Virus record (IMG/VR): IMGVR_UViG_3300027892_002613
Location: 9,288-73,287 of that record
Length of the DNA: 64,000 bases
Origin: a virus
Lineage: Duplodnaviria; Caudoviricetes
Direction: 5' to 3' (one strand)
The translations under genes and the position numbers were made by a program. This document shows, one piece after another, positions 2-42,734 of the stretch (the first letter of the stretch is position 1; each line of letters starts with the position of its first letter). The notes beneath the pieces were generated by a model that was not told where the DNA came from, did not search any database, and was given only the letters and a program-made list of their open reading frames with translations.

Positions 2-673
2 AGAGTATTCTTTGAACCAAAGCCTGCATTAGCTCGTTTCTTTGACCCTTATGCAATTAGTGGTATGGGTACTTTAAATATCACTCAGGAGTTCGGATTC
101 AGTTCGTTCAGTACTGCTACCCAATTCGTATTAATGCCGTTCTATGAAGACCTCTTGAGGATTCAGGCTATAGAGTTTAACGACCAAATTAGAAAATCAG
201 CACATACGTTTAGTATTGTAAATGGTAAACTTAAAATATTCCCTGTCCCAACAACTAATCAAAAACTATGGTTTGAATACTATGTTAGAGATGAGTATGA
301 TACGAATTCATTAGGGCTTAGAGATGGCAGAGTATCCGATTATTCAAATATAGGATATGATTTTATACCGTATCAAAGAATTAATGATGTGGGAAGACAG
401 TGGATTAGAAAATATACATTAGCTTTATGTAAGGAATTATTAGGAGCAATTAGAGAGAAATATAGTAGTATCCCTATTCCAGGTGGAGAAACTACATTGG
501 ATGGTGCTCAATTAAGAGCGGAAGCAACTACTGAAAAAGAAAATCTAGTAACTCAATTAAGAGAGAATTTAGATGAGGTTTCAAGAAAAAAGATTTTTGA
601 AAATAAAGCTGCAGAAGCAAACCAACAAATGGAAATGTTGCAGAAAGCACCTTTAGCAATATTTGTAGGATAA
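2..673 (+). CDS. Neck/head-tail adaptor protein (T4 gp13-like), 5'-truncated by the window
   Basis: The frame is open from base 2 (RVFFEPKPALARFFDPYAISGM...). The C-terminal WIRKYTLALCKELLG..R.KY..IPIPGGETTLDG motif is typical of gp13-like neck proteins. It precedes gp14/gp15-like genes. Confidence 0.75.
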   Translation, partial: RVFFEPKPALARFFDPYAISGMGTLNITQEFGFSSFSTATQFVLMPFYEDLLRIQAIEFNDQIRKSAHTFSIVNGKLKIFPVPTTNQKLWFEYYVRDEYDTNSLGLRDGRVSDYSNIGYDFIPYQRINDVGRQWIRKYTLALCKELLGAIREKYSSIPIPGGETTLDGAQLRAEATTEKENLVTQLRENLDEVSRKKIFENKAAEANQQMEMLQKAPLAIFVG

Positions 674-2023: not shown

Positions 2024-4471
2024 ATGCCTAAAATTTCACAATTACCAACACTCGAAACCATAACAACCGGAAGTATAATTCCAGTTGTAGAAAATTCAAT
2101 AACACAGAAGTTATCAGTAGGTAAACTATATGAATTCCTTAGTGGAACTTTAGACCAAACATTTGCTACGGAAATAGAATTGATGTTAAGTGCATCTTCA
2201 TTAGTAACTACTTCATCGTTCAATGCTTATACTGCATCAGCTAATACATCTTCATTAGTAACTACATCTTCATTTAATTCATATACATCTTCAAATGATG
2301 GAAAGTGGAATACATTGGGAGGACAAACGGGTTCATTTGTAACAGAAGCGGAGACGGGTAGTTTTGTAACTAATGTATCGATGTTTTTATCTAAATCAGC
2401 ATTTGATACTTACACAGGAAGTGCTGCAAATGCAGTTAGTTCTGCTATCAATACAGCTACTTCATCATTGAGTTCATCTAATGCGGCTTTAGATAATATA
2501 CAATTATTTACATCATCATTCAATACATTTACATCATCGGTTAATTCTACTACGCAATCTTTAAATAATTTTACTGCGAGTGTAATTGCAACCGGTTCAA
2601 ATATAAACTCATTCACCGCAAGTGTAAACGGAAAGACGGGTTCATATGCGACAACCGGTTCAAATATTTTTATTGGCACACAAACTATAACCGGTTCATT
2701 AAACGTAAGTGGTAACACTGTTTTAAGTGGTTCATTGACCATAACTGGTAGTATAGTTGGTGCAAATAATTTAGTAACTACATCTTCATTCAATGCTTAT
2801 ACTGCATCAGTAGTAAGTGTTAATACATCTTCATTAGCAACTACTGCTTCATTAAATTCATATACATCTTCAAATGATGGAAAGTGGAATACATTAGGTG
2901 GTCAAACAGGTTCATTTGTAACAGAAGCGGAGACAGGTAGTTTTGTGACTAATGTATCGATGTTCTTATCTAAATCGGCATTTGATACTTACACAGGAAG
3001 TGCAGCAAATGCAGTTAGTTCTGCTATTAATGCAGCTACTGCATCATTTAATTCATATACATCTTCAAATGATGGAAAGTGGAATACATTAGGTGGTCAA
3101 ACAGGTTCATTTGTAACTACATCTTCATTCAATTCATTTAGTAGTTCGATTAATACAACAACTGCTTCATTAAATACTTTTAGTGCGAGTGTAATTGCTA
3201 CCGGTTCATTAATTAATACATTCACCGCAAGTGTAAACGGAAAGACAGGTTCATTTGCAACAACGGGTTCAAATACATTTATAGGTAACCAAACAATAAG
3301 TGGTTCTCTAAATATTACATCCACCGGTTCGGTTCAACCATCAATAGGAGATAGTCTTGAGGGTGGAAAGGTGGCGTACATACTAACATCTAGCGATGCC
3401 GGATATGACCCAACTTTAATTAAAGGTATTATAGTAGCAACAACAGACCAAAGTACCGGAATTCAATGGTATAATGGTGCTTTTACAACCACTTCAGCAA
3501 CAGGAACTGCTATAGGAACGGGGTTATCCAATACAGATGCCATTATTGCAAGTCAAGGAGCTGTTACTACTAATTATGCAGCAGGATTAGCGAGAGCATA
3601 TGGAGGTGGGGGTTATTCAGATTGGTTTTTACCATCTAAAGATGAACTTAATCAATTATATCTAAATAGAGTTGCTATTGGGGGTTTTGCGAGTGCCTTC
3701 TATTGGAGTTCTACGGAGGCCACCCAATTCTTCACGTGGAGGCAGAACTTAAATACTGGTGTTCAGGACACCCTCGGTAAGAGTGGGCTAATGTATGTTC
3801 GCGCCATTAGGACTTTTTCAATCCCTGCATTAACTGTGGTTGCGTTGGGTAGTAATACAACGATATCCGGTTCGTTAACTATAACTGGTTCGGTTAATAT
3901 AAGTGGTTCTACGAATATTACTCAATATTTAACTGTAGGGGGTAACATAATTAATTCATCAACTGCAACTTCATTGACTTTAGATGGTGAAAATGTAACA
4001 GTTACTGGTGATTTATCTGTAGGTGGAAATGATATTAAATCAAATATAGGAACAACTGCAATCACATTAAGTGGTTCATCTGTTTCTATGCCAGGTCCTG
4101 TTACCATAACCGGTTCATTAAATGTAAGTGGTTCATTAATAGTAACTGGAAGTGCGAGAGGAAATGTAGTTCCAATAACTATTGTATCCTCAACTGCATC
4201 ATTAGATATGACTTCAGGTAGTTACTTCACCCTAACTCTTGCGAACACTACGAATACACACATTAGAGCTACAAGCATAACACCTGGAATAAGTGCAACA
4301 CTTTTAATTACAACGGGTACAAACTCATCTGCATCATTATCACCTTTATTATTACAACCATCTGGTAGTTCTTATACTGCTTCATTAGGTAGTGGTAAAA
4401 AAGATGTACTTTCATTGGTCGCATTTGATTCAACAAATATGTATGTAGTATCAACTAAAGCAATGCAATAA
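2024..4471 (+). CDS. Tail fibre/virion protein with internal repeats and an internal DUF1566 (CLec-fold) domain; probable DGR target
   Basis: N-terminal KISQLP motif; Ser/Thr-rich repeats; segment IGDSLEGGKVAYI...GYSDWFLPSKDELNQLY...YWSSTE...W...YVRAIRTF matches DUF1566/Lcl-C. Confidence 0.75.
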   Translation: MPKISQLPTLETITTGSIIPVVENSITQKLSVGKLYEFLSGTLDQTFATEIELMLSASSLVTTSSFNAYTASANTSSLVTTSSFNSYTSSNDGKWNTLGGQTGSFVTEAETGSFVTNVSMFLSKSAFDTYTGSAANAVSSAINTATSSLSSSNAALDNIQLFTSSFNTFTSSVNSTTQSLNNFTASVIATGSNINSFTASVNGKTGSYATTGSNIFIGTQTITGSLNVSGNTVLSGSLTITGSIVGANNLVTTSSFNAYTASVVSVNTSSLATTASLNSYTSSNDGKWNTLGGQTGSFVTEAETGSFVTNVSMFLSKSAFDTYTGSAANAVSSAINAATASFNSYTSSNDGKWNTLGGQTGSFVTTSSFNSFSSSINTTTASLNTFSASVIATGSLINTFTASVNGKTGSFATTGSNTFIGNQTISGSLNITSTGSVQPSIGDSLEGGKVAYILTSSDAGYDPTLIKGIIVATTDQSTGIQWYNGAFTTTSATGTAIGTGLSNTDAIIASQGAVTTNYAAGLARAYGGGGYSDWFLPSKDELNQLYLNRVAIGGFASAFYWSSTEATQFFTWRQNLNTGVQDTLGKSGLMYVRAIRTFSIPALTVVALGSNTTISGSLTITGSVNISGSTNITQYLTVGGNIINSSTATSLTLDGENVTVTGDLSVGGNDIKSNIGTTAITLSGSSVSMPGPVTITGSLNVSGSLIVTGSARGNVVPITIVSSTASLDMTSGSYFTLTLANTTNTHIRATSITPGISATLLITTGTNSSASLSPLLLQPSGSSYTASLGSGKKDVLSLVAFDSTNMYVVSTKAMQ
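2197..3125 (+). repeat. Intragenic direct repeats: about 260 bp unit at ~2197-2460 and ~2770-3040, with a third partial copy at ~3045-3125
   Basis: Near-identical DNA encodes SFNSYTSSNDGKWNTLGGQTGSFVTEAETGSFVTNVSMFLSKSAFDTYTGSAANAVSSAIN twice, and SSNDGKWNTLGGQTGSFVT a third time. Confidence 0.9.
3683..3817 (+). other. Putative DGR variable region (VR) inside the DUF1566 domain
   Basis: Encodes GFASAFYWSSTEATQFFTWRQNLNTGVQDTLGKSGLMYVRAIRTF. Hand count gives 66/130 G+C over 3681-3810, against AT-rich flanks. Many codons at positions that are Asn in typical DUF1566 templates are NNC/NNT. Confidence 0.7.
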
Positions 4472-5234: not shown

Positions 5235-7901
5235 ATGGCATTATTACAGATAAGAAGGGGTAATAACGGAACTAAGGGTACACTACAATATGGTGAACCT
5301 TTCTTTAATTCAACCTTACAAACAGTTCAATTCGGAGCAAGTGGGAGTGAAGAGGTAACCCTCGTTAAATTAAATACAGGCATAGCAGGTATTAATACGT
5401 GGGGAAGTTCATCTGTGTTCGAAAACTCAGGTTCACTTTCGGTGACAGGAAATATTACTGCTTCTAATGCTTACTTTAGAGGAGATGTTACTATTAGTGG
5501 TAGTCTTAAATTAGGAGATAATGATACTGATTCTGTAACCGTTGTAGCAGATTTCACTTCCGACCTTATCCCAAACCAATCAGCTAGTTTTGATTTAGGA
5601 ACTGCTGCAAAATATTGGAATACTGCCTATTTAGGTTCACTTTCATTAGCTGCATTAGCAGGAGTGGATGCACCAAATAATATAGTATTTGTTAATGCGG
5701 TAAATCAATTAACAGCATCAAATGATTTCGAATACATTGAGGGAGCAAAATTAAGATTAGGTTCTGGTTCACAAGATAGATTTTGGGTAGAACCAAATAC
5801 GGGTAATACTTTTGCAAGTGGTAACCTTTATGTAAGTGGAACTACTGGTATTATATTAAAGGGTAATATTTCATCTTCCGGTGGAAATTTATTTATGGTT
5901 AGTGGTGTATTTGCTAACTTAAATCCATCGTTTAATCCATCCGCAGCAGATAATGGATTGGTATTTACTCAAGGAGGTTCTTTGGTAAATATGTCCGGTA
6001 TTAGATATTTCAATGCACAGGAACAATTTAACATTGGTAATGGTAAATTCATTGTAGAAGGTACTAATGGTAATGTATTCTCAAGTGGAACATTACATGT
6101 ATTAGGGCAAGTATCAGGTTCATCTGCGATATTAACACAAACATTACAAGTTGATGGTGCAACTACACTTAATAATCAACTAAGTGTATTGGGTGCAGGT
6201 GGTAGGGTTAATATTAATCAAGATTTAAGAGCAGATGGTAGTGGTTCGTTTGGTAATGGATTAACCGTAACCGGTAGTGTTCTTCTTAATGCAGGAAATA
6301 TAGGAACAACACAGATTAGTGGAAACCTATTTATTGGAAGTAATTCACAAACGAGTATCACAAGTATTAGTGGTGCATTTTCACAGGAATATTCTGGAAG
6401 TACTTTAGAAATTTTACATAAGAGAATATCACCTTTCAGAAATGCTAGTATAATATTTGATGATGATAACTCTCCTATTATTGCTGGAGCACCTGGTAAA
6501 ATAGTATTAAGAAATCAAAGTACAGATGGTGTTTTAGATTCACAGATAACTACCGGAGTAACAAGTAGTGGTATAGTTGTATCAAATGGAGGAGGAAGTG
6601 CAGGTTCAGTTAACATAGCATACGCAACTCCTGGAGATAATACATCGGTTAGAGTAAACATTGGTGCAACTAATGGTATCGCTTTAAATAATAGAACTCA
6701 ATTAACATCAAATTTATCGGTAACGGGTTCTACAATATTAGCAGGTGGATTAACTACTAATACAACTAATGTTTTAATAAATGGTACTGGTAATAATGCA
6801 GGTAATATTCAAAACTTTAATACCGCATCATTTGGATTAGTAAACGTTTCATCTTCACTTTATGTAACCGGTTCAACAACTATTTTAGGTGTTGTAAATA
6901 TTGGAGATTTAGCGACTAGTGCTAGTGGATTAATTGAAGGTAGTGCATCTATAGCGGGAGATTTAACCGTAAGAGGTAATTCAGTTTATTTAGGAGTAAG
7001 TAGAGTTTCTGCTGAAGCTAAATTAATTGAAATTGGAAGTGGTTCTACAATACCTTCTCAAGTAGAAGGAGCTGGTTTATTTATAAGTGGAGCTAGTGCT
7101 CAATTTGTTTATAGAGAAGTTGGTGATAGAATGTTCCTTAACAAAGGTTTAAAAATCGAAGGAGATTCTATTAGTGGATTTGGTTTACAAGTTTCTGCAT
7201 CTACATACTTAACAGGTAATTTAGAAGTAAGTGGTAACTTAGGTGTATATGGTAATATAAACTTAGGAAATGTTACTATTACAAATACCGCTTCTATTCA
7301 ACACTTAATTGTAAACAATAATATTTCAGGTGGTAATAATCTTAATATTGCTAATAACGCAGCGATATCTGGTAACTTAACTATATTTGGTAATGAGATA
7401 GTAAACGGAACACTAAAATCAAATGGTGCAACTGCTTTACATTCTACATTAAATGTTAGTGGAGCGGTAGGATTAAATAGTACATTAAGAGTAACAGGTT
7501 CTACTGCAATAACAGGAGGATTATTTGTAAGTGGTAATACTGAATTAAGTTCTTCATTAACTGTTAAAGAGTATTCTTTCTTTGAAAAGAATATGAGAGT
7601 AAGTGGAAACTTACAAGTTGATGGTAACCTTGAAATATTAGGAGATGTTACACAACTTCAGGTTTCTAACCTACAGATTGAAGATAAGAATATTATCATA
7701 GCAAGTGGTTCGTTATCATCTTTACAATCTGCTGATGCAGGTTTAACGATTTTAGGGCCTACTACACCTATACAATTTGTTTGGGACCACACTAATCAAC
7801 GAATGAATCTTAATAAAAATTTCAATATTAGTGGAAGTTTATTAGTTCAGGGAGATGATATAATAGATACTGCGGTTGCATTGGCAATTGCATTAGGATA
7901 A
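5235..7901 (+). CDS. Tail fibre/structural protein (beta-rich, G(N/S)L.V.G repeats)
   Basis: N-terminal LQIRRG...LQYGEPFF fibre-attachment-type motif, many GNLxVxG repeats, C-terminal AVALAIALG. Confidence 0.65.
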   Translation: MALLQIRRGNNGTKGTLQYGEPFFNSTLQTVQFGASGSEEVTLVKLNTGIAGINTWGSSSVFENSGSLSVTGNITASNAYFRGDVTISGSLKLGDNDTDSVTVVADFTSDLIPNQSASFDLGTAAKYWNTAYLGSLSLAALAGVDAPNNIVFVNAVNQLTASNDFEYIEGAKLRLGSGSQDRFWVEPNTGNTFASGNLYVSGTTGIILKGNISSSGGNLFMVSGVFANLNPSFNPSAADNGLVFTQGGSLVNMSGIRYFNAQEQFNIGNGKFIVEGTNGNVFSSGTLHVLGQVSGSSAILTQTLQVDGATTLNNQLSVLGAGGRVNINQDLRADGSGSFGNGLTVTGSVLLNAGNIGTTQISGNLFIGSNSQTSITSISGAFSQEYSGSTLEILHKRISPFRNASIIFDDDNSPIIAGAPGKIVLRNQSTDGVLDSQITTGVTSSGIVVSNGGGSAGSVNIAYATPGDNTSVRVNIGATNGIALNNRTQLTSNLSVTGSTILAGGLTTNTTNVLINGTGNNAGNIQNFNTASFGLVNVSSSLYVTGSTTILGVVNIGDLATSASGLIEGSASIAGDLTVRGNSVYLGVSRVSAEAKLIEIGSGSTIPSQVEGAGLFISGASAQFVYREVGDRMFLNKGLKIEGDSISGFGLQVSASTYLTGNLEVSGNLGVYGNINLGNVTITNTASIQHLIVNNNISGGNNLNIANNAAISGNLTIFGNEIVNGTLKSNGATALHSTLNVSGAVGLNSTLRVTGSTAITGGLFVSGNTELSSSLTVKEYSFFEKNMRVSGNLQVDGNLEILGDVTQLQVSNLQIEDKNIIIASGSLSSLQSADAGLTILGPTTPIQFVWDHTNQRMNLNKNFNISGSLLVQGDDIIDTAVALAIALG

Positions 7902-8301: not shown

Positions 8302-11300
8302 ATGAAAGTAATAGGTAAACAAAATTCAGGTGTAAATTTAGTTGCAAGTGGTACACTTGGTATATCGGTATTAGGTAATAACGAAATCCTAATGAGTCTT
8401 GATAGGACATTCATATCATCATCATTGGTGGTAAGTGAATCTCTATTTGTATCAGGAAACTCACAATTAGGTATCAACACCGCTAGTACACATGAAATCA
8501 CTGGTAGTTTTTTACTTTCCGGTTCTTCAAAACAAATTGGAACATCGGTAATAACGGGTAGTATAACTGTAACAAGAGATTCTACTTTCATTCAAGATGT
8601 ATATATAAGTGGTACTCTAAAAGGTCCGTTTTCTTCTTCAATCGAACAAAGAGTTAATTCTTTAGAGGAACAGAGATTTATATTACGAGGGGATGTAAGT
8701 GCGAATGCAGTATTAACTGGTTCAGCAAAATCTACATATACTGCTTCATTAAACATAACATTAAATCAAATATCAGCTTCTAAGATTATTTTTCCTGAAG
8801 AATCTAGAAGAATTTATGTTGCTGAATATGGTAGTGATATTTTAATAACTCCTCATAGAGGTAAATCACCTGCAACTGCATTTAAATCAGTTAAAGCAGC
8901 GGTACAAAGTATATACAGCAATTATCAAATATCCGCTTCACAAGTTAGTGGGTCTGGAAATAGTGGTTCTGCAACTGAAGCTTCTGCTATTTCACAATCA
9001 TATGCAACTGTTGCTGAAATATTAGCAGGTGGGTTGGGTGTAACTCCAGCCGAAGTGAAAAATGGTGCAACTACTTTAGTATTAGTTGGAAATGTATCAC
9101 AAAGTTTTTACGATGGATATGGTGGAAACTCAGAATCTTCATCAGTAAGTTCTTCATTTGCAACCGTAATAAATATATTAGGTAATGGATTAGGTGTAGT
9201 TCCTGCATTAGTAGAAAATGGTAGAACACCTGTAAAACTTTCCACAAATGTTCAGATAACAGGAACAGGTGGTACTAACGCAGTATCATCATCAATCAGT
9301 TCATCATTTGCAGTTATCACATCTATTATCAACGGAGGATTAGGAACTGCTCCGGTGGTTGTTAATAATTCAGAAGTAATATCTACAGATGCGAATAAAT
9401 TAAATGCTAGAACATTAGTATTACAAAATAAAGGGTTTATACAGGATGAAACAGTTGAATATTTAAATGCCGTTTTTCCTTTCTTTGATTATAATAGTTT
9501 AAGATGTAAAAGAGATGTTGGTTTACTTATAGATGCCGTATTAGATGATTTAGTATTTGGAGGAAATCAAAGAACGGTTGAAGCAGGTATATCATATTAT
9601 AATGGTAACTTTGGAGCCATTCAATTTGGAGGAAGTGGAGTAGCAAATACTCAAAAAGACCAAACAATAGCAGCTATTCTTTACGCAAGTAGAATGGCTC
9701 AAATCATTTCGGTAAACGGAGCGATTTCTGCACCAACTAATGCTAAATCAAATGCAAAAGCTGCATTATTAGGAAATAAATCATTAATTCAAGAAGAGAT
9801 AATCTACTTCATTGAGCATGTTTATATAAAAGGTAAAGACCAGACTGGGACACCATTTACATATGATAGAGATAAATGTAGAAGAGATACTGGATATATT
9901 ATAGATGGTGTTGCAACCGATTTAATACTTGGAGGAAATCAACAATCTATTATAAATGGTTCGGCATATTATAATGGAGTATTTGGAAATGGTGCGGGTG
10001 TTATAAATAACCAATTAGTTGAGACGGTAACATCTCTTTCATACGGAGCTAGAATAGCTAAAGATGCCGTTGTAGGTAATGTAGTTGCTAAACTATCTAC
10101 AAATAAAAAGAATGCAGTTTCCTTATTGGAAATGAACAAAACATTCTTAGGAGAACAGACTGTAGGACTTATTTCTTCATCATTCCCTAATTTAATTTAT
10201 AGTTCATCTAAATGTGTTAGAGATGTTGGATTAATTACCGATTGTGTTATTGTAGATTTAATCTATGGTGGTAACGAACAGGCAATTAATGCAGGTACAT
10301 CTTATTACACAAATGCTTATGGAAATGCAGCTTTAGTTCCTGGAGCTCAATTAACGGAGACCGTAGCTGGTATTTTATATGCGGGTGCTATTGCACAGAA
10401 AGTTTCTAAAGATGAATTTGTAACAAATACATTTGCACCTTGGTTCTCTCCATTTTTAAACTATAATGCAACTATATTTGTAGAGACCGGAACTTATATA
10501 GAAGATAACCCTATTGTAATTCCTCCTGGAGTTGCGATTAAAGGTGATACATTAAAACAATCATTATTATATGCGAAGAATCCTAAATTGGATTACTTCC
10601 ACGTACATAGTGCCGATTATATAGATTCAGTAAGATTCTTAGATTTACAAAGACCAGCTTATACTGTAGCTTTCCCTTCTGCTATTATCGATTATACGAT
10701 TTCAGCGGGTAAAATTACAAATCCGGTTGTATTGTATTCTCCTATTGGTTATACCGCTTCTGTAAATATTATGGTTGAGGAACCTGATTCTCCACCTGAA
10801 AGTGGTTCAATCAGAGCTGAATTTACACCTGTTATTTCAAATGGTAAAATTGTATCATTAACTTATGTTAACTCTGGTAGTGGATATGTTTCTACAGAGA
10901 GACCACATATTTCAATTCCTGCTCCGCAAAATCAAAGGCCGTTTATTCAGGCATCTCCGTATGTTTGGAATTCAACTGCAATCACAGGACCTTTTAATTT
11001 TAATGGAGAAAAGATTTCTGCATTAGTACCACTTCCTTATGATTTGGATGATTTAGGTGTAGATAACACCGGAGCCGGTGGTGGTATGAGAGTGGATGGT
11101 AATTGTTGTAGAGAAGCATCACCTCGTTCTCCACTTCGTTCAATGGTAGCGGCGGCATTTACGCAAGTTAATCAGGGAGGGCCTGGACACCACGTTTGTA
11201 ATACGGGATACGCTCAGTTCGTATCTATGTTTACCACATATTGTACTTTTGGATTTAAAACATCAGGTGGTGGATTTGCAAACATTTCTAACTCCGTAGT

Positions 11301-14300
11301 TGACTTTGGTCTGCAAGGAATTATATCAAAAAGAAATTATAGAGACACATATACAAGTGCATTAGTATTATCAGCGGGTACTTCAAATGTAGCTGGTTTC
11401 ACTGTAACTATTCCTGGTAGTGGATACACCACAGCACCGGTTGTTACAATTAGTGGAGGTGGCGGTAGTGGAGCAAGTGGTTCGGCTATTATAACATCAG
11501 GACAGGTAGTAGCATTAAATTTAGAAAGTAGTGGTAGTGGTTATTCATCCGTACCATCAGTTTCTATTGCATTACCTAGTACACCTGGAGGAGTTGGAGC
11601 AACCGCTACTGCAGTATTAAGTGGTTTGGCTAATATCTTTGTTAGAGTTACCGGTTCATTCCAGGGACAACAAAGAAATATTGACTTCTCTTCTTTGATG
11701 AAGTTAAATGGTGCTGATTACTTAGTAACTGATATTAATACAACTGTAGAACCAGATGAATTCTTCGTTGAAACTTTCCCTGCAGTATTTTCCGTTACCG
11801 CAGGAGATAATGCTAATTTCTTCCAATTATCGAACATATCAACGGGAGGTCTTGTATTAGAATACGTTGGAGCAGGTATTACTTATAATGCTATTCCTGA
11901 ATATGGTGGAATTCCAGATTCATCAAAAGAGGTTGTAATGATTGAACCTGGAAAAGTATTCGCTGTAACAATTGATAACAGAGGTAACTTAAAAGTTGGT
12001 AGATTCTTTAAAGTAGACCAATTGACGGGTGCGGTAACAATCGATGCAAATCAGTTCTCACTATCAGGTTTATCATCAATAGGACCTTTCAGAAGAAATG
12101 GAGTTCCTGTCGGTATTGTAATCAATGAGGCATCTGATAACGATACATTATTAAACTCACAGGGTATACCTGGAAGAGATACCGTTCCATCTCAGCAAGC
12201 GGTTAAAACTTATGTTGATACTAGAACTATTGCAGCAACTGGTACTAATAATCAAGTATTAGCTAAGAGTGGTAGTACTATATACGCAACTGAATTTAGA
12301 AATACAATTGATACAATTTCAACTAACACATTAAGTGGTTCTAAAATTGTATCCCGTTCATTAGGTAGAGATTTAATTGTAACACATTCATTAACTGCAT
12401 TAGAGATTTCATCTTCTACATTTGGTAATGGATTGACAGGTGGTAATGGAACTCCGGTAGAAGTAGTATTTGGTGTATTTGCATCACAATCTACAGATGG
12501 AGCTCAATTTACTGCGTTCTCTCAGAGTGTTAGTGAATCAGTTAGATTCTTATTGGCTACATCTGCGACAACCGGTTCAAACACATTTAAAGGTAATCAA
12601 ATTGTAAGTGGTAATTTGACTGTTAGTGGAAACGTTGATATCAAATTAGATACTAGAATAAGTGGAAACCTATTCATCTTAAATTCTACAAACTTAGGCC
12701 CGACAGTTGAGATAAGCGGAAACTTATCTGTGACAGGTTCAACTATATTGAGTGGAGGTTTAGATGTATTCAAATTTGCTAACATACAAGCACCTTTCAC
12801 TGCAAGTGGATTAAGATATCCAAATAGTGATGCACAAGGTGTAGGTAAAATTTTAAGAAGTGATGGAGCAGGTGGAATCTTTTTTGGTTTCACAGATAGA
12901 ACTTCGATTGGAATTGTAAATATAGGAAATGGTGGACCAATTGCAAAGGGTACTCCATTATATATAAAAGGATTTGATGCGGGAACTGGATTAACAATAG
13001 TTGGAGCAGCTTCATCATCTCAATTAAATAAAATGCCAGCCGTAGGATTGGCAGCTGATAATTTATTAGAAAGTGGGTCAGGTTCATTAACTGCATTGGG
13101 TATCTTAACAAACTATGATACAACTGCATTAACATCTGGACAACAATTATACGTTGGACCTAATGGAGGGTTAACAACTGAATTACCTACGGGTTCATTC
13201 TATGTACAAAACGTAGCTGTTGTTGGTAGAATCAATATCAACGATGGTGAATTATTGGTAGAACATCCAGGAACTTTCTACAGATTACCTAACCTTCCAC
13301 AAGATTGGATATGGTATGGTAGTAATGGAGGTGCAGCAGTTTCTCAATCATTGACTGGGGCTATTGCTTCGTATCAATTAGCTAGAACTGTTGTAGGTGT
13401 TACAAATCAATCGGATAATTGGTATGAAGGAGCTTTAGTAGTAAGTGGAGGTTTAGGTGTTGCGAAAAACGCTCAAGTATCAGGTAACTTAACTATCTAT
13501 GGTAACTTTGATGTAAAGGGTAGTACAACTATTACATCTATTACCGCATCTAACTTAGATATTGCGGAAAATACAATTGCGGTAAGAGAGTTTTCACCAG
13601 TAGTTAGATTCGGTGGATTGATTGTATATGATTCTGGTTCTGTAGTAGGTGGAACTCCTCCAAATAACGTATATGCATCCGGTTCATTATTCTATGATGG
13701 TGTAGATAATAACTGGGTAATTGCACAAAATGATGGGCGTTCTTCATCTTTAATGATAGGAGGACCTGTTAATGGTGGATTATATGGTAACGAAGAAGGA
13801 TTACCGATGGGAACTATTCCTGTAATTCAATATACTGGTAACAACTTAACATCTTCTACAATGACCGATAACGGAGTTGTAGTAAGAATGACAAATGATT
13901 TAGTAGTAACCGGTTCTATCGGTGGTAGATTGACAGGTTCTATTCAAGGAACATCATTATCAATATTTAACTCATTAAGTGCAACGGGTTCATTTAGTGG
14001 AAACGGATTCTTAACCGGTTCATTCACAGGTTCATTTACTGGAGCTGCTGATTTGGCATTTGCTATTACCGGTGGAAATGCAGGTGGATTTGATTACTTC
14101 AACTATAATGGTAGTGCATCGGCTACTGTAAAAATTGCAACACAATCTTTACACTTTGAAGAAGGTATTAAGAAAAAAATAAATTACGAACAAGTAATAA
14201 GTTCATCTATACAAATTAGAGAGTATGGATATGAATTCTCCGGTTCAGTTAACGCATTTACCGCTTCTACTAATTTGGCATTGAGTGGATTAAACTCATA

Positions 14301-16941
14301 CTCTGCTTCATTAAAACAAGCTATTAATACAAACGGAAACGATTTAATAGTACATGGTACGTTAAGAGTAACCGGTTCTAAAGTATTGTTAGAAGTTGGT
14401 GATGTTAAGATAGTAGATAAATTCATAGAAATCGCAAGTGGTTCGTTGAACTCAGCGGCAGCAGATGGGGCAGGTTTCTATATTAGTGGTGCTGATGCAT
14501 ATGTAACTTGGTCACATGGTTCTCAAAGTTTCAATTTCTCAGATACACTTTATTCTGATAACAATATTGAAGTAAGAGGAACTGTTGATGGAACGTTAAT
14601 TAGAGAATTCGCACCTTCACATAATAATTTCTCTTCATCAATAAACGCATATACTGCATCATTAAGAACTGCGGTATCTGAAAGTAATGGTGATTTAATT
14701 ATATTCAATAACTTACAAGTTAGAGGTACATTAGGTGAGCTAAGAGTTGATAGATTACAAGTTAAAGATAAGCAGATTGAACTTAATAGTGGTTCAACAA
14801 CCTCTGCGGCATCTGATAAAGCAGGTTTATACATAAGTGGTGCGGATGTTAATTTCTATTGGGACCATCCTAATCAGTATATGTACTTAGATAAGAATTT
14901 CACTGTAAATGGTGATTTCAATGCAAGTACAATTAATGGTATTAACTTAGGTGCATTTAGAAATTCAGTTAATCAGGCAACCGGTGCATTAGAAGTTTAT
15001 TCTTCTTCATTAAAAAATGCTATAACCGTTGCGGGAACAGGAGTTTCATCTGTAACAACTATACAAGGTGATTTGAATGTATTGGGTACAACAACTCAAC
15101 TTCAAATTTCAGATTTAAAAATTGAAGACCGTTTAATTGAAATCGCTAGTGGTTCAACTACATCGGTTTCTGCAAACGGAGCCGGTTTATTCATAAGTGG
15201 TGCTAACGTATTCTTCTCATGGTCGAATGCTGAAACTAATATGAGATTAGCTAGTGGATTGTTTGTAAACGGAGCAATTACTTCATCTACGATATTAGTA
15301 GCTCAAACAGCATCATTTAATCATATATCAGCTAGTGGAAACATTAGTGGTGGAGCATTATTTGTAGAAGGTAACACTTCATTGAGAGGTAATGTAACTG
15401 CAAGTGGAACGGTATCTGCATCTGTATTATTTGTACAAAATGCAACTAACATAAGTGGAGGATTAGAAGTTGTTGGAAACATAAGTGGTAAAGAATACAT
15501 CTCTGCGAGTAAAGGTATCACAGGTAGTGGTGTTTGGTCAGCAGGTGAAATTAGAGCATTATCAAATGTTCAATTCGATGGAACTGGATTAGTTGGTGGA
15601 AAATTAACCGTAACTAATGCGATTTCAGCTAGTAATTCTATATCAGGTGCAGGTATCCAATCAAACGGAAACTTTAGAGCAACGGGTAATTCAATATTAG
15701 ACGGATTAGCTACATTTAACAATAGTATTTCTGCGAGTGGTGTAATAACTGCAAGTGGATTAAGAATAGAAGGTGAAGGTTTTTATGGTTCTTCATCATT
15801 CGTTGGACCAATCACAGGTTCTACTGCGTGGTTCTCTGATAATTTAAGAGTAACTGGTTCAATAACCGCTTCTCTTAATATGAGTGCAAGTGGATTCGTA
15901 AGTGCTTCGGCTTCTAATTTTAGAGGTGAAGTAAGTGCAACTCTTCATAAAGGAGATTTACAATTTAATGTTATCGCGGGTAGTGGTATTAGTGGTTCAG
16001 TATTCCGTAACCAAACGGATACTACATTCACTATTGATACACAATCAGTTCATTTCCAATCTGGTTCTCAGCAAGCGGTTGTATCTTATATCAAAGGAGA
16101 TATTACGATTGCAAGTGATGGTACTGCAACAATCGCGGGTAACTCAATTACATTAGGAACTGATACGGCTGGAGATTATGTAGCAAGTATTAATCCTGGA
16201 AGTGGTTTGACCGGTGGTGCGACAAGTGGAGAAGGTGTTGCTCATACTTTAGCGGTAGGAGGAGGGGATGGTATATCAGTTGGAGCAGATGTTGTTTCAT
16301 TGAATACTGGTTCTACACACTTTACTAATGGAGCTAGAATAACTGTTGCTAACTTTGTTAGTGGTGAGGTATCAATCAATCCATCAACCGGTGTTGCTTC
16401 ATTAGTTATCCCAACATTATCTAGAGCAAGTAACATAACAGGAACTGCCAATCAGATTACTGTAGGAGGCGTAACTGCAACCGGAGCATTTACTGCATCA
16501 TTATCATTACCTCAAAACATCCATACTGCGGCTGACTTTAGAGTTGGTTCATTAGGAGTTGGAGTAGCGGCGAGTGCAACAAGTGGTAGAATCGATGCGG
16601 CAAATGATATCGTAGCTTACTCTTCATCGGATAGAAGATTTAAAGAGAACATCAAAAATATACCAAACGCATTGGCTAAGGTATTAAGAATAGGTGGATA
16701 TGAATTCGATTGGATTTCAAACGTTGAATTACATGGACACGAAGGACATGATATCGGAGTTATCGCACAAGAAATTGAGGAGATACTTCCAGAATTAGTT
16801 CAAACGAGAGAAAGTGGATATAAAGCGGTTAAGTATGATAAGTTAGTTGCACTTCTTATCGAAGGTATGAAAGAGCAACAAGTACAAATCGATAACTTAA
16901 AATCAGAAGTAGAAAATTTAAAAAGAGCAAGAGGGTTATAA
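8302..16941 (+). CDS. Giant tail fibre/spike protein (2879 aa) with beta-helix-like region, CxRD repeats and C-terminal peptidase S74 intramolecular chaperone
   Basis: C-terminal SSDRRFKENIKNIPNAL...GVIAQEIEEILPELV...YKAVKYDKLVALLIEGMKE is an S74 chaperone. IYVAEYGSD/TIFVETGTYIE is a pectin-lyase-like start. GSGYTTAPVVTISGGGGSGA repeats are present. Confidence 0.8.
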   Translation: MKVIGKQNSGVNLVASGTLGISVLGNNEILMSLDRTFISSSLVVSESLFVSGNSQLGINTASTHEITGSFLLSGSSKQIGTSVITGSITVTRDSTFIQDVYISGTLKGPFSSSIEQRVNSLEEQRFILRGDVSANAVLTGSAKSTYTASLNITLNQISASKIIFPEESRRIYVAEYGSDILITPHRGKSPATAFKSVKAAVQSIYSNYQISASQVSGSGNSGSATEASAISQSYATVAEILAGGLGVTPAEVKNGATTLVLVGNVSQSFYDGYGGNSESSSVSSSFATVINILGNGLGVVPALVENGRTPVKLSTNVQITGTGGTNAVSSSISSSFAVITSIINGGLGTAPVVVNNSEVISTDANKLNARTLVLQNKGFIQDETVEYLNAVFPFFDYNSLRCKRDVGLLIDAVLDDLVFGGNQRTVEAGISYYNGNFGAIQFGGSGVANTQKDQTIAAILYASRMAQIISVNGAISAPTNAKSNAKAALLGNKSLIQEEIIYFIEHVYIKGKDQTGTPFTYDRDKCRRDTGYIIDGVATDLILGGNQQSIINGSAYYNGVFGNGAGVINNQLVETVTSLSYGARIAKDAVVGNVVAKLSTNKKNAVSLLEMNKTFLGEQTVGLISSSFPNLIYSSSKCVRDVGLITDCVIVDLIYGGNEQAINAGTSYYTNAYGNAALVPGAQLTETVAGILYAGAIAQKVSKDEFVTNTFAPWFSPFLNYNATIFVETGTYIEDNPIVIPPGVAIKGDTLKQSLLYAKNPKLDYFHVHSADYIDSVRFLDLQRPAYTVAFPSAIIDYTISAGKITNPVVLYSPIGYTASVNIMVEEPDSPPESGSIRAEFTPVISNGKIVSLTYVNSGSGYVSTERPHISIPAPQNQRPFIQASPYVWNSTAITGPFNFNGEKISALVPLPYDLDDLGVDNTGAGGGMRVDGNCCREASPRSPLRSMVAAAFTQVNQGGPGHHVCNTGYAQFVSMFTTYCTFGFKTSGGGFANISNSVVDFGLQGIISKRNYRDTYTSALVLSAGTSNVAGFTVTIPGSGYTTAPVVTISGGGGSGASGSAIITSGQVVALNLESSGSGYSSVPSVSIALPSTPGGVGATATAVLSGLANIFVRVTGSFQGQQRNIDFSSLMKLNGADYLVTDINTTVEPDEFFVETFPAVFSVTAGDNANFFQLSNISTGGLVLEYVGAGITYNAIPEYGGIPDSSKEVVMIEPGKVFAVTIDNRGNLKVGRFFKVDQLTGAVTIDANQFSLSGLSSIGPFRRNGVPVGIVINEASDNDTLLNSQGIPGRDTVPSQQAVKTYVDTRTIAATGTNNQVLAKSGSTIYATEFRNTIDTISTNTLSGSKIVSRSLGRDLIVTHSLTALEISSSTFGNGLTGGNGTPVEVVFGVFASQSTDGAQFTAFSQSVSESVRFLLATSATTGSNTFKGNQIVSGNLTVSGNVDIKLDTRISGNLFILNSTNLGPTVEISGNLSVTGSTILSGGLDVFKFANIQAPFTASGLRYPNSDAQGVGKILRSDGAGGIFFGFTDRTSIGIVNIGNGGPIAKGTPLYIKGFDAGTGLTIVGAASSSQLNKMPAVGLAADNLLESGSGSLTALGILTNYDTTALTSGQQLYVGPNGGLTTELPTGSFYVQNVAVVGRININDGELLVEHPGTFYRLPNLPQDWIWYGSNGGAAVSQSLTGAIASYQLARTVVGVTNQSDNWYEGALVVSGGLGVAKNAQVSGNLTIYGNFDVKGSTTITSITASNLDIAENTIAVREFSPVVRFGGLIVYDSGSVVGGTPPNNVYASGSLFYDGVDNNWVIAQNDGRSSSLMIGGPVNGGLYGNEEGLPMGTIPVIQYTGNNLTSSTMTDNGVVVRMTNDLVVTGSIGGRLTGSIQGTSLSIFNSLSATGSFSGNGFLTGSFTGSFTGAADLAFAITGGNAGGFDYFNYNGSASATVKIATQSLHFEEGIKKKINYEQVISSSIQIREYGYEFSGSVNAFTASTNLALSGLNSYSASLKQAINTNGNDLIVHGTLRVTGSKVLLEVGDVKIVDKFIEIASGSLNSAAADGAGFYISGADAYVTWSHGSQSFNFSDTLYSDNNIEVRGTVDGTLIREFAPSHNNFSSSINAYTASLRTAVSESNGDLIIFNNLQVRGTLGELRVDRLQVKDKQIELNSGSTTSAASDKAGLYISGADVNFYWDHPNQYMYLDKNFTVNGDFNASTINGINLGAFRNSVNQATGALEVYSSSLKNAITVAGTGVSSVTTIQGDLNVLGTTTQLQISDLKIEDRLIEIASGSTTSVSANGAGLFISGANVFFSWSNAETNMRLASGLFVNGAITSSTILVAQTASFNHISASGNISGGALFVEGNTSLRGNVTASGTVSASVLFVQNATNISGGLEVVGNISGKEYISASKGITGSGVWSAGEIRALSNVQFDGTGLVGGKLTVTNAISASNSISGAGIQSNGNFRATGNSILDGLATFNNSISASGVITASGLRIEGEGFYGSSSFVGPITGSTAWFSDNLRVTGSITASLNMSASGFVSASASNFRGEVSATLHKGDLQFNVIAGSGISGSVFRNQTDTTFTIDTQSVHFQSGSQQAVVSYIKGDITIASDGTATIAGNSITLGTDTAGDYVASINPGSGLTGGATSGEGVAHTLAVGGGDGISVGADVVSLNTGSTHFTNGARITVANFVSGEVSINPSTGVASLVIPTLSRASNITGTANQITVGGVTATGAFTASLSLPQNIHTAADFRVGSLGVGVAASATSGRIDAANDIVAYSSSDRRFKENIKNIPNALAKVLRIGGYEFDWISNVELHGHEGHDIGVIAQEIEEILPELVQTRESGYKAVKYDKLVALLIEGMKEQQVQIDNLKSEVENLKRARGL

Positions 16942-31373: not shown

Positions 31374-31390
31374 TATAAATCATAAATTTA

Positions 31391-31422
31391 TTTGGAAAAT
31401 TAAATAATTCATCGTATATTTA
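31391..31422 (+). promoter_or_regulatory. Bacteroidota-type promoter (-33 TTTG / -7 TATATTTA) for the PhyH gene
   Basis: TTTG at 31391-94, 20 nt spacer, TATATTTA at 31415-22. Confidence 0.6.
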
Positions 31423-31445
31423 TAGTTATAATAAACAACAAAGTT

Positions 31446-36900: not shown

Positions 36901-38183
36901 AACAATTTATTAAACAAGGTTCTTCTGAAGAGGAGGCAAACGAAGAAGCTAGGAAAGTAATTGCTGCTATTGAAAGAGGAAACACAATGGTTGATAAACT
37001 TTCAAAAGATGGTGAAATGGAAGTGGTGGATTATGGTCCAACTGATACCAATGATAATAGAAAAAAGACCCTTAAGAATACAATAGATAAAACTAGAAAA
37101 AGTATATTAAAATCTATAAAAAAATATTCAGGATTATCTGAAGAAGAAATTTTAGAAAAATATGCAGACTTATTTAAAAGTATAGATGAGATAGAAAAAT
37201 CCGCACCCATAAACAATCCGAATTGGGATTCTATGAGTGCAGAGGAAAAAGAAAAAGCATCAGCAGAATATTTAGGTAAACTTACAAATGTATTACAAAA
37301 TATAAGAAGAGATAAAGATATAGCATCAGGTGGTCCTGATATAGCGGAAGTTTTAGTATTTATGAATGAAATCGGAAAAGGAAATCAGGCATTTTTACCT
37401 TCATCATCAAACTTCCCAACTGTTGATATAGTTTCATTTAATCAACAAAAAACCCCACCGGAAAACGCAACTCCAGAAGAATTAGCGGAATTTTATGCAA
37501 ATGAATACTCTGCAAATAGTGTTTCATTTATTGATAGTGATGCTGAAAGTATTAAATTGGGTAAGGGTGGTGCAAGTGCGGGCCCTTCAAAAACTGATGG
37601 AAGTACATTTAATAACGAAAAAACAAAAGAAGTATTGGATTCAATGATGGATAGTTATCATGCTATTTATGGAGAGTATCCACCTTCAAAAGAAGCAATT
37701 GATAAAGCGGAGGAAGGTTATAAAGCACAAAGAGCCCATATGATAGAAATTTTAGTTGGGCAGGGTAAGAGTCCTGAGCAGGCTGAAAGAATGGTTTCCG
37801 ATGTAGAAACGAAGGCAACAGATGGTGAAAAATCTGCATATCAACAGGCTAAAAAATCATATCAAAATAGTTTAGGGGAAGAGGAAATGGATGCTGAATT
37901 TGATAGAGGATTAAAATTATATAATAAGACTGGGATGTTATTTGAGATGATGTTCAATGAAGACGTTAAATCAAATAACTTTGGTAATGTTAGATTTGTA
38001 GAAAGTGGTACCGGTGCACGAACTAGAATTTCAATGGAAGTTTTGGATGGTATAAATGAAAAGTGCTGTGTTAAATTCAATCCAAATCCGGGAGAACTCA
38101 AAATTAAAGGTGATGCGAGCGGAAAGAGAAAAGCGGGTATAAATGTATCTTATTCAACTTGGATAGTAAAATGTAAAAAATAA
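33924..38183 (+). CDS. Large acidic multidomain protein (1419 aa) with a ParB/Srx-like domain
   Basis: ADKLKATQKDL...PIYVSRDGYVIDGHHRWAA is a ParB-N/sulfiredoxin motif; Pro/Glu/Lys-rich linkers. Confidence 0.6.
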   Translation: MADIKNIINELLLELSVTYPFPNMKDREQVFALLEICDELGYSYLKPQLEEMFLNEAEKEGESKLFPGKFHLGGGFYSSKNGGEAELKNEKGSLRPVTPEEKAKFDAKSGKGEEPKPNDEPKKDEPSAEKPADKPEEKPETPTGDKPSAEQPEKPAPPQANPEVEKGKKDAKEDPQKVLSDPNATAQSKAMARAFKAQKDTDSADTEDKPTEDDIKTKSETVSKGLKNRKSKDGEDLDVETTENGSLIIGVEHGKRKKSNKQTIEQIKTLPKDTKVMFVGEGGMSKDDNGNIEFGGEQNEIRNAVKGHFDNAEESSWDENADVLDDKSPVFDEVAKSVGGSKSKAKAAIWSNMYGQDGPDENMTPEDYLDDEGKEWLIDQAKKGGSSEFDGEVDWNNLTDAQQKDLYELNYRDDDGYGETEISKTQEAYNGFRQKELDRKIKEAEDAGYTVIAPVGNSHVDMWRKRNKKNEFKPVEADEVSNEMPDADKEIFNSNAEALSGLQPAQLEQFNTDIDKVAKMISDAEAKGEPAPDINLCDITIPGTNLYCDDNKGIPREEMPQFKGKAVEGSKAAGMETDKDGEVDTEPVFREMLKQKNVKVLQTKVPADKLKATQKDLVGGKVIGMMGALEKDPTNPKITAPIYVSRDGYVIDGHHRWAAIVAYNAKHPDSPIEMKSTVIDMDIKDAIPMANKFAEDMGIAAKKADVKDGEVPAPKEPNKKEGGVIHPVGGNYYSDTPDGPAQYVKTESVVREIFENENEKFLSLLFEKSVTKKLPNGDTVKVTPIDVKDQPEATAKADELDSNVNADVATARTNLKISDDVIKKRIAEANKHIDNSEADDSTKKILKDAIAKILKGEDVDPNDLEIASKWLAVRVGGGNDIGLYIAKTEGDFNSNSREKIQMNIDPQKVEDYDTKAEEWNDSMVNKYGLPIRTQTGAYVNKKDWTANKMNKKRRKVKFEVSENGNSVTVDGVTYTKRPVPDKETLVEQTNLVEQFIKQGSSEEEANEEARKVIAAIERGNTMVDKLSKDGEMEVVDYGPTDTNDNRKKTLKNTIDKTRKSILKSIKKYSGLSEEEILEKYADLFKSIDEIEKSAPINNPNWDSMSAEEKEKASAEYLGKLTNVLQNIRRDKDIASGGPDIAEVLVFMNEIGKGNQAFLPSSSNFPTVDIVSFNQQKTPPENATPEELAEFYANEYSANSVSFIDSDAESIKLGKGGASAGPSKTDGSTFNNEKTKEVLDSMMDSYHAIYGEYPPSKEAIDKAEEGYKAQRAHMIEILVGQGKSPEQAERMVSDVETKATDGEKSAYQQAKKSYQNSLGEEEMDAEFDRGLKLYNKTGMLFEMMFNEDVKSNNFGNVRFVESGTGARTRISMEVLDGINEKCCVKFNPNPGELKIKGDASGKRKAGINVSYSTWIVKCKK

Positions 38184-38215
38184 TTTGGAAATATAAAATT
38201 TTCTTATTATCTTTA
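38184..38215 (+). promoter_or_regulatory. Bacteroidota-type promoter
   Basis: TTTG at 38184-87, 20 nt spacer, TATCTTTA at 38208-15. Confidence 0.6.
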
Positions 38216-38234
38216 CACTTATAAACCAAACGTT

Positions 38235-41662: not shown

Positions 41663-42699
41663 TGAATAACAAATACAAGAATTTATTAGATGAAGTAAAT
41701 TTGGAACATACCACTAAACACCTTAGAACTAGAAATTCTAAGGTGTTATTTGTGGATGGTTTAAATATGTTCTTCCGTTGCTGGAGTACAAACCCAACAA
41801 TGAACGAAGATGGAGAACACACAGGTGGTATGGTTGGATTCCTAAAATCATTAGGAGCAGTTATACGCCAGGAAAACCCTACTAGAGTAGTAGTAATATT
41901 TGATGGTAAGGGGGGCTCACAAAAAAGAAAAGAAGTATTCTCAAATTACAAAGCGGATAGAAAAGTTAAATTCAGAGTCAATCGTCAGTATGCTGATATG
42001 ATGAGTGAAGAAGATGAGCAAGTAAGTTTGAGAAGGCAATTGAGTTCATTGGCTAACATCTTAGGTGTATTGCCTGTAACTACAATGATATATGATAACA
42101 TAGAGGCAGATGATGTAATAGGTTATTTAGCTAAACAAGTTATCAAAGAAGATGAAGGAGCATTAATTCTTTCATCGGATAAAGATTTCCTACAATTAGT
42201 TTCGGATAATATCCACGTTTGGAATCCATTGAAGAAACAAAAAATTGATAAGGATAAATTAAAAGAATTATACGGAGTTCACGCAGAAAACTTTATATGG
42301 TATAGAGTAATGGATGGTGATAAATCCGATAACATAGATGGTGTAAGGGGATGTGGATTAAAAACACTTCTTAAAAGATTGCCTGTATTGGAAACCGATG
42401 CTAGATTGACAGTAGATGAACTGATGAGATTAGCGGAAGAACAAAAAGGGGAATACAAAGTTTTTCAAACCATTTTAGATAGTAAAAAAATAATTGAAAG
42501 AAATTTCCAAATAATGCAATTGGAAGACCCGGATATTAGCGGGATTACCAAACTTAAAATAAACGACAGATTTATTGAATCAGTTGAACCATTGGATAAA
42601 ATGAAATTCATTGGGTTTGGAATGAAATATAAGATACTACAAAATTGGGGAGATGTTAATGATTGGCTGAGGTCATCATTCGGTAATTTAGTTTTATAA
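41662..42699 (+). CDS. 5'-3' exonuclease / flap endonuclease (T4 RNase H-like)
   Basis: FVDGLNMFFR, VIFDG, YKADR, IEADDVIG, SSDKDFLQL, GDKSDNIDGVRGCGLKT. Confidence 0.9.
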   Translation: MNNKYKNLLDEVNLEHTTKHLRTRNSKVLFVDGLNMFFRCWSTNPTMNEDGEHTGGMVGFLKSLGAVIRQENPTRVVVIFDGKGGSQKRKEVFSNYKADRKVKFRVNRQYADMMSEEDEQVSLRRQLSSLANILGVLPVTTMIYDNIEADDVIGYLAKQVIKEDEGALILSSDKDFLQLVSDNIHVWNPLKKQKIDKDKLKELYGVHAENFIWYRVMDGDKSDNIDGVRGCGLKTLLKRLPVLETDARLTVDELMRLAEEQKGEYKVFQTILDSKKIIERNFQIMQLEDPDISGITKLKINDRFIESVEPLDKMKFIGFGMKYKILQNWGDVNDWLRSSFGNLVL

Positions 42700-42702
42700 T
42701 AA

Positions 42703-42734
42703 TTTGGAAATTCCAAATTTTAATCTTATATTTG
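42703..42734 (+). promoter_or_regulatory. Bacteroidota-type promoter for the helicase gene
   Basis: TTTG at 42703-06, 20 nt spacer, TATATTTG at 42727-34; the ATG follows after only 4 nt. Confidence 0.7.

Follow-up and report, generated by a model that had tools for sequence, protein, structure and literature searches.

Diversity-generating retroelements (DGRs), in which a reverse transcriptase (RT) and a template repeat (TR) serve to mutagenize the variable region (VR) of a target gene at template adenines, act on, among others, domains with a C-type lectin-like (CLec) fold. DUF1566 is the commonest DGR target domain in human-microbiome DGRs, with 47 proteins (PMC4159848); it also defines the CLec2 class of VR, which accounts for 51 of 372 DGRs and of which the DGR of Legionella, with its target LdtA, is an example (Wu et al. 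2018, PMC5758913). The latter paper also describes targets that are not adjacent to the element, action in trans, and one internal CLec2 VR. Here, we analyzed a 64,000-nt stretch of DNA (hereafter, the window) that corresponds to positions 9288-73287 of the 73,287-nt IMG/VR record IMGVR_UViG_3300027892_002613, which derives from an AT-rich tailed phage. Unless stated otherwise, coordinates are window positions on the + strand. An open reading frame (ORF) at 2024-4471 is predicted to encode a tail fibre of 815 aa, and we conclude that its codons 556-596 (3689-3811; 41 codons) are probably an orphaned, or "fossil," DGR VR that now evolves conventionally. An earlier note on this stretch, made from the sequence alone, had proposed instead that a remote DGR cassette currently diversifies the segment in trans.

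The segment stands out in base composition. As the earlier note had counted, 66 of the 130 nucleotides at 3681-3810 are G or C (our recount was identical) in a gene with a GC content of 35.9%. The third bases of codons 554-598 are T in 17 cases, G in 13, C in 12, and A in 3, whereas those of the whole gene are T in 344, A in 322, G in 82, and C in 67. Within the 41 codons of the VR, the number ending in A (A3) is 3/41 and the number ending in G or C (GC3) is 25/41, against record means of 16.5 ± 3.3 and 8.2 ± 3.2, respectively. All ORFs with a length of 150 aa or more, from either strand of the 73-kb record, were scanned in segments of 41 codons; among 19,819 such segments, 3689-3811 was the only one that combined A3 ≤ 3 with GC3 ≥ 25, and the remainder had a minimum A3 of 6 and a maximum GC3 of 21. 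Against the gene's own codon usage, the binomial probability of three or fewer A-ending codons out of 41 is 3.7e-6. Codons ending in G or C (GAG, CAG, AAG, AGG, ACG, GCC, CTC, and CGC) occur in place of A-ending codons, whereas T-ending codons were retained (17/45 in the VR region vs 42% gene-wide). Because third-position adenine was lost and third-position thymine was kept, the shift is an avoidance of adenine rather than a general rise in GC; a GC-richer donor would be expected to lose both. The runner-up GC3 patch of the record, at window positions 38-160 (record 9325-9487) within a conserved first ORF (2-673), reaches at most 21/41 GC3 with an A3 of 7. This patch is far weaker than the VR.

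We used a protein-pattern scan of the genomes of 185,579 species to obtain control DGRs; the best 80 loci were taken, and these were mostly from metagenome-assembled genomes of freshwater Bacteroidota. In 78 of these loci, there were 100 copies of the domain, and each copy was searched for a repeat that mismatched its VR-equivalent only at adenines of the repeat. This analysis identified true VR/TR pairs in four loci (L118, L162, L183, and L185), with the template ~700 nt downstream. The paired repeats differ by 20-23 adenine mismatches and by zero non-adenine mismatches in L118, L162, and L185 or one in L183. The RT domain RVT_1 was found in all four control genomes and lies directly downstream of the TR in L118, L183, and L185. 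In L185, the cassette order is target (collagen repeat and Lcl_C, 327 aa), bAvd (81 bits), TR, and RT (RVT_1, 83 bits). The control VRs have an A3 of 0.02-0.05 (as a fraction of codons) and a GC3 of 0.59-0.76, whereas the upstream half of the same domains has an A3 of 0.26-0.36. When we considered the 85 copies with an upstream A3 of at least 0.20, which belong to genomes without a high GC content, the VR-equivalent A3 was ≤0.075 in 32 copies, intermediate in 38, and ordinary (≥0.20) in 15. Within flanks reaching up to 8 kb, 4 of the 32 signature-bearing copies had a template, against 0 of the 53 others. Judging from loci L110-L189, freshwater Bacteroidota also seem to have many VRs that look orphaned or are served from a distance.

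The window VR aligns codon for codon with the four control VR/TR pairs. The blocks Y-W-S-S-T-E, W, Q, G, Q, K, and Y-V-R-A-x-R are encoded by the same codons in the window and in the L185 TR, and the control templates carry runs of AAC/AAT between scaffold codons that match those of the window. Seventeen codons are AAC or AAT in at least three of the four control templates, which are homologous rather than cognate TRs; we refer to these as mutagenic-position codons. At these positions, the window reads TTC GCC ACC CAA TTC TTC AAC AAT ACT GTT GAC ACC CTC GGT AGT GGG ATG. The third base is C or T at 14 of the 17, with nine ending in C (P = 2e-6 vs 8% C-ending codons in the gene). In each control VR, all 17 are NNY (Y being C or T), whereas three of the 17 in the window no longer end in C or T. 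The codons listed by the earlier note (GCC ACC TTC TTC, GAC ACC CTC GGT, and AGT) are correct, and they sit at template AAC/AAT positions.

The scaffold block Y-W-S-S-T-E (3701-3718) is an 18-mer that is nucleotide-identical to the VR and TR of L185, and it is present in 40 stretches of viral contigs. The codons GAC ACC CTC GGT (3767-3778) correspond to AAC AAC AAC AAT in the template. The 3' constant block Y-V-R-A-I-R (3794-3811), in which arginine is encoded as CGC and AGG within an AT-rich gene, matches the start of the initiation of mutagenic homing (IMH) region in true VRs, and all 18 nt are identical in the VR of an apparently unrelated complete phage (G016). The end of the composition patch coincides with the codons at which homology between the control TRs and VRs ends. 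In an adenine-tolerant scan of 226 loci (1.74 Mb), the best matches after the window's own alleles were the four bacterial TRs, with 18-24 non-adenine mismatches; the four are relatives of the template and not the template itself. As a negative control, we examined a complete 207-kb relative of the phage that is RT-less (G005). Its Lcl_C homologue (46% identity) has an A3 of 14/48 and one C-ending codon. Since this homologue is ordinary, the signature is not intrinsic to the domain family or to the phage group. Based on a signature in register with true VR/TR pairs, the segment appears to be a DGR-type VR by descent, in agreement with the class of region that the earlier note had recognized in a CLec-like domain.

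Pfam identified the domain that contains the VR as PF07603 (Lcl_C, formerly DUF1566) at aa 473-596 of the fibre (E = 1.7e-8; model positions 3-117 of 117), although the score of 35.2 bits against a cut-off of 34.9 is marginal for the fibre sequence alone. Homologues at E ≤ 1e-5 numbered 5067 among 7987 candidates, and PF07603 was present in all 120 of the matches listed. AlphaFold2 analysis of aa 440-606 with an alignment of 74 sequences gave a model with a pLDDT of 95.8 and a pTM of 0.91; an earlier model from eight sequences was poor (pLDDT of 52) and was set aside. Using Foldseek, we identified the C-terminal domain of Legionella Lcl (8q4e) as the top structural match (E = 6.6e-8; TM score of 0.75 by target length), followed by 4eps at E = 0.03 and then by many C-type lectin-like domains with weak E-values of 0.15-2. 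The 8q4e entry is also the sole significant sequence match among solved structures (E = 2.1e-11). The predicted structure thus has the features of a CLec-like fold.

This domain belongs to a 167-aa cassette (3341-3841). In translation, the cassette is flanked upstream by TISGSLNIT (3293-3319) and downstream by TISGSLTIT (3860-3886), which is the arrangement between two TISGSL.IT motifs that the earlier note had described for the 815-aa fibre. Based on sequence comparison, the Lcl_C domain is an insert in the fibre, because a 395-aa fibre homologue (L007) has the N-terminal repeats in common with it, as well as the final 131 aa (75% identity to aa 685-815), but no Lcl_C domain. The cassette occurs at 87-100% aa identity in fibres of 419, 439, 505-508, 660, 678, 750, 854, 897, and 904 aa, including the 419-aa fibre of L005 and the 660-aa fibre of L015, and the sequences clearly point to mobility among fibres of differing architecture. 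The 660-aa fibre allele (L015:3885-5867, - strand) joins collagen-like G-T-S repeats to the Lcl_C cassette. The bacterial DGR target of L185 (L185:7338-8321) likewise consists of a collagen repeat and Lcl_C, which is also the architecture of the Legionella collagen-like protein that gives the domain its name.

The earlier note had reported neither an RT nor a template repeat in the window, and this result extends to the entire 73,287-nt record, with 13 kb of sequence on the upstream side of the VR and 60 kb on the downstream side. RVT_1 was absent from the record and from each of 24 further viral records (0/25 in total), including the CheckV-complete G005, G006, and G016. The 24 records comprise four with fibre relatives, five records with 85-100% DNA polymerase identity, five at 63-66% (among them the complete G005 and G006), and ten carriers of DGR-type VRs from the same cassette family (among them the complete 117.6-kb G016). 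The bAvd family (PF22296) did not exceed the cut-off in any of 16 viral records, the window's own record included, whereas the DGR of control G028 scored 80.3 bits. One low-scoring bAvd candidate (L227:4313-4645 in G014; 15 bits) was rejected: it is a 110-aa all-helical ORF, MazG-like by eye, that lies between glycosyltransferase-like genes, and no template was found near it.

No direct repeat of the VR was found in the record, and the best non-self match in an adenine-tolerant template scan of the whole record had 34 non-adenine mismatches out of 135. Among all loci examined, six template-like stretches were detected; all six are bacterial and none is viral. A scaffold-only 18-mer, which could match a template, gave 42 matches in viral contigs, none of them a template. 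A template-specific 26-mer from L185 gave one match, in an unrelated DGR (L228) that is GC-rich and has 41 or more non-adenine mismatches.

The VR of the window is internal (codons 556-596 of 815, with 220 codons following), whereas each of the 18 DGR-type VRs from other viral contigs has its end 2-8 codons away from the stop codon; its location is as unusual as the earlier note had supposed. Two sets of these other VRs deserve mention. The complete phage G016 (117,586 nt; CheckV 100%), which is apparently unrelated to the phage of the window, encodes an Lcl_C protein (L200:2793-3602) with a DGR-type VR that has an A3 of 1/41, NNY at all 17 mutagenic positions, and a distance of 8 codons from the stop. 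In G016, we found no RVT_1, no bAvd over the cut-off, and no second copy of the VR; the only match was the VR itself. In L195 (5956-6781) and L196 (3190-4000), and also in L213, three short ORFs are arranged in tandem with a spacing of ~344-347 nt. Each ORF ends in a different DGR-type VR, 2 codons before its stop, so that the arrangement resembles a multi-target DGR array. These loci lie on phage fragments of 88, 21, and 79 kb that are 11-28% complete, and RVT_1 was not found in the fragments.

We compared VR alleles in 15 records (the window, three viral contigs, and eleven metagenome contigs), after leaving out L001, L009, L014, and L024 as duplicates and L020 as truncated; this set contains nine alleles. 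Seven of the 17 mutagenic-position codons do not vary among the nine alleles, and GAC ACC CTC GGT accounts for four consecutive ones, whereas the 5' blocks (codons 556-559 and 567-571) vary. In DGRs, cDNA synthesis begins at the 3' side and runs upstream to a variable 5' end (PMC5758913); rewriting of the 5' blocks should therefore also rewrite GAC ACC CTC GGT. Variable columns make up 14 of 48 template-adenine positions vs 10 of 69 never-adenine positions (Fisher p = 0.065); by comparison, only 0-1 non-adenine sites differ in the true pairs. At one fourfold site in the VR, each of the four bases occurs (GGA/GGC/GGG/GGT). In total, variable columns number 28 of 123 in the VR vs 69 of 378 in the rest of the domain. 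When the window was compared with L005 and L015, pS was 0.15-0.19 in the VR and 0.19-0.27 upstream, non-synonymous divergence was ~3-fold higher in the VR, and pN/pS was ~0.9 in the VR vs ~0.25 upstream. The raised pN/pS at displayed positions would fit a ligand-contact surface under relaxed or diversifying selection.

The alleles also appear stable. Each of the near-identical pairs L005/L027 and L015/L026 differs by one non-synonymous substitution in the VR across the 501-nt domain alignment, and the alleles are mosaics of a few block variants, as expected from recombination. The VR allele of the window was present with zero differences in contigs of four sequencing runs from four studies (spanning 3512-3822; 3527-3731 and 3702-3836; 3673-4300; and 3704-3836), and contigs of other known alleles occur alongside it. 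As far as the sequences go, the variation is not adenine-specific, and the alleles look frozen.

We infer the following history for the segment. The Lcl_C/DUF1566 domain would once have been targeted by a CLec2-type DGR resembling the intact target-bAvd-TR-RT cassettes of freshwater Bacteroidota, and this DGR may have resided in a bacterium or in another phage. During a long partnership with an adenine-mutagenic template, the scaffold codons would have come to avoid adenine, and the displayed positions would have come to carry NNC/NNT codons. A domain carrying one mutagenized version of the binding surface would then have been captured as a cassette between the beta-helix repeats of a myophage fibre and later shuffled among fibres of different architecture. 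At present, only two processes would alter the surface: point mutations, with selection either relaxed or diversifying, and exchange between alleles through recombination. As an accessory receptor-binding module, the domain most likely attaches to a glycan or protein of the host surface. The role would be accessory because the conserved C-terminal 131 aa, which are common to the domain-less fibre, remain the distal end.

Several observations weigh against an orphaned VR. The record is 37% complete according to CheckV, such that an RT and a TR could sit in the unsampled part, and its DNA polymerase is only 63-66% identical to those of the nearest complete relatives. The absence of a nearby template is weak evidence on its own because 28 of the 32 signature-bearing bacterial copies also have no template in flanks of up to 8 kb; such copies could be served remotely or could have lost their templates. 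Exact-word scans for a template in viral, metagenome (13 contigs), and genome (0 matches) contigs returned only allelic VRs in a fibre context. These scans provide no evidence against a template, because four of the words contained codons that a template would carry as AAC or AAT, so that the cognate template was unmatchable, and the 3' word ran 2 nt past the end of control TR-VR identity. The data from sequencing runs are assembled contigs, in which rare variants are invisible and uncovered stretches are uninformative. Lastly, some allele differences at template-adenine positions are of the A-to-N type (AAT AAC TAC vs AGT GCC TTC; ACG/GCG/TCG). It may therefore be that several alleles go back to distinct DGR products, with recombination afterwards, and at least part of the allelic diversity may date from DGR activity.

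These A-to-N-like differences, together with the incomplete record, the undecayed adenine-avoidance signature, and the elevated pN/pS, would suit an active DGR of the phage's own, whose RT, Avd, and TR would be situated in the ~60% of the genome that was not sampled and would still be rewriting an internal VR. Non-adjacent phage-associated targets are known, nearly all of them <50 kb from the RT, and there is one internal CLec2 VR on record (PMC5758913). We nonetheless regard this explanation as unlikely. No RT occurs in the 13 kb upstream or the 60 kb downstream, none of the 25 related viral records has RVT_1, and GAC ACC CTC GGT is the same in nine alleles despite 3'-initiated cDNA synthesis. 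Furthermore, 10 of the 28 variable columns are never-adenine positions, near-identical pairs show single substitutions rather than multi-site rewrites, and an identical allele recurs across four studies. The frozen codons and stable alleles argue equally against a host DGR acting in trans, in which a template in freshwater Bacteroidota would home into the phage VR during infection. Scaffold blocks are nucleotide-identical between bacterial TRs and the phage VR, DGR components can work in trans (PMC5758913), and the complete phage G016 has a DGR-type VR without an RT, TR, or bAvd. However, the best bacterial TR has 18 non-adenine mismatches vs 0-1 in true pairs, the IMH-equivalent differs (AGG ACT vs CGG GCT), and the GC-rich hairpin is missing; we hold this route to be very improbable. 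Taking the trans routes together, continued service by a cassette >13 kb upstream in a myophage of ~200 kb or by a Bacteroidota host DGR seems to us rather improbable. If it were true by the host route, the receptor-binding diversity of an RT-less phage would depend on a host retroelement, and the orphan VRs in RT-less phage records, including that of G016, would be clients of foreign DGRs and not fossils.

A third explanation dispenses with DGRs: the patch could be a piece recombined from a GC-richer genome, or its codons could be under selection for mRNA structure or translation speed. The local rise in GC is real, and the cassette is clearly mobile among fibres. However, only A-ending codons were lost (T-ending codons remain at 17/45 vs 42% in the gene), the patch stops where true TR-VR homology stops, NNC/NNT occupies 14 of 17 template-AAY positions, and bacterial copies that have a template differ in just this way from copies that lack one; an origin unrelated to DGRs is quite improbable on these grounds. 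With no template, RT, or bAvd found in the sequences examined, frozen codons, non-adenine variation, and a stable allele, present-day diversification of the VR is not supported, and the remote cassette proposed by the earlier note is not borne out. The alternative that the note had held in reserve, a recently acquired or fossil domain, is a better fit, except that the shift in composition which it would have explained is adenine avoidance and not a general rise in GC.

The earlier note had also proposed a hairpin at 3843-3862 as a cis homing element. The weak inverted repeat is present as written, but it lies inside coding sequence and is probably functionless. Folding of the region is no better than that of shuffled sequence, with z-scores of -0.10 in the window (72 of 200 shuffles fold as well), -0.69 in L005, and +0.56 in L015; in both L005 and L015, part of the inverted repeat is lost to a 9-nt indel. 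The repeat is not GC-rich, whereas each of the four control VRs is followed, at a distance of ~35-45 nt, by a conserved GC-rich hairpin. Because a repeat of this kind was found in no more than 127 of 372 DGRs (PMC5758913), the absence of a hairpin is weak evidence either way. Covariation was considered and rejected: by eye, the stem closes with C:G in the window, with G:C in L005, and with G:T in L015, but one pair in three coding sequences is too little. The 3' constant block is present and homologous to that of the controls, and an IMH can be defined only against IMH*.

The record as a whole is that of an AT-rich myophage (window GC content of 33.6%), with genes for a tail sheath, a DnaB-like helicase, a ribonucleotide reductase, and a B-family DNA polymerase; the tail sheath and other myophage genes are downstream of the fibre ORF. 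In the region 3300-4300, at least 71% of sampled words were present in 20 sequencing runs from 15 studies labelled as freshwater or lake-water metagenomes. In the fibre ORF, the inserted Lcl_C cassette stands between N-terminal repeats and beta-helix-like TxSGSLxxTGS repeats, after which come the C-terminal 131 aa in common with the domain-less homologue. Among PHROGs, only phrog_4245 matched, and its function is unassigned. TBLASTN alignment of the domain against GenBank phages gave four weak matches in Lak megaphages (37.5% identity, 23% query coverage), which are uninformative.

Elsewhere in the window, a giant fibre ORF of 2879 aa (8302-16941) has a C-terminal Peptidase_S74 intramolecular chaperone domain (E = 5.5e-18), and it has repeat units in common with an 888-aa ORF (5235-7901). 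An AT-rich motif of ~45 nt occurs at 31383-31432, 38176-38225, 42695-42738, and 50253-50297, with pairwise identity of 68-73%. Each copy stops just 5' of, or overlaps, the start of a long ORF on the + strand, and these repeats are candidate phage promoters or regulatory sites.

The mechanism considered here is not new, as publications already describe the domain class, adenine mutagenesis, targets that are not adjacent, and internal VRs. In a literature search that left supplements uncovered, and which is no proof of absence, we found no account of orphan or fossil VRs made by DGRs and persisting in RT-less phages. VRs that are separated from their element are invisible to DGR surveys because these surveys start from the RT. 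If codons 556-596 are a fossil VR, then a binding surface made by a DGR can outlive the element and move as a cassette into fibres of RT-less phages. Such a former VR would be recognizable by sequence alone, through third-position adenine avoidance in the register of the CLec2 scaffold, which would provide a simple screen for former or remote DGR targets. The counts that bear on generality are 18 of the 42 matches to one 18-mer in viral contigs and the 28 of 32 signature-bearing bacterial copies that are template-less in the flanks examined. Were the pattern general, freshwater phages would owe part of their receptor-binding repertoire to earlier diversification elsewhere, followed by fixation.

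Among the systems described at the outset, remote DGR targets such as those in Treponema and others resemble the window in having a VR without an adjoining RT; they differ in that their TR lies elsewhere in the genome and shows A-to-N differences only (PMC5758913), and no such TR was found here. Mtd of Bordetella phage BPP-1, the prototype for the diversification of tail fibres in phages, is a receptor-binding fibre protein with a CLec-type surface mutagenized at adenines, and the window fibre probably resembles it in this. In BPP-1, the whole cassette sits beside a C-terminal VR of the CLec1 class and switches tropism (PMC5758913), whereas in the window the class is CLec2, no element was found, and the patch seems to be fixed. 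The C-terminal domain of Legionella pneumophila Lcl (8q4e) is the best structural match, and the combination of collagen-like sequence and Lcl_C recurs in L015 and L185; however, this domain is 28% identical to that of the window, and it is a domain of a bacterial adhesin rather than a phage fibre module. The intact CLec2 DGR targets (L118, L162, L183, and L185) differ from the window, in which the cognate TR, RT, and bAvd were not found, the VR is internal, the GC-rich hairpin is absent, three of 17 codons do not end in C or T, and the alleles are few, stable, and not adenine-specific. Nevertheless, the window shares with these targets the same Pfam domain, nucleotide-identical scaffold blocks, the VR register Y-W-S-S-x-E ... 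W-x-Q ... G-x-Q ... K ... V-R-A-x-R, and an adenine-avoiding scaffold with NNC/NNT at displayed positions.

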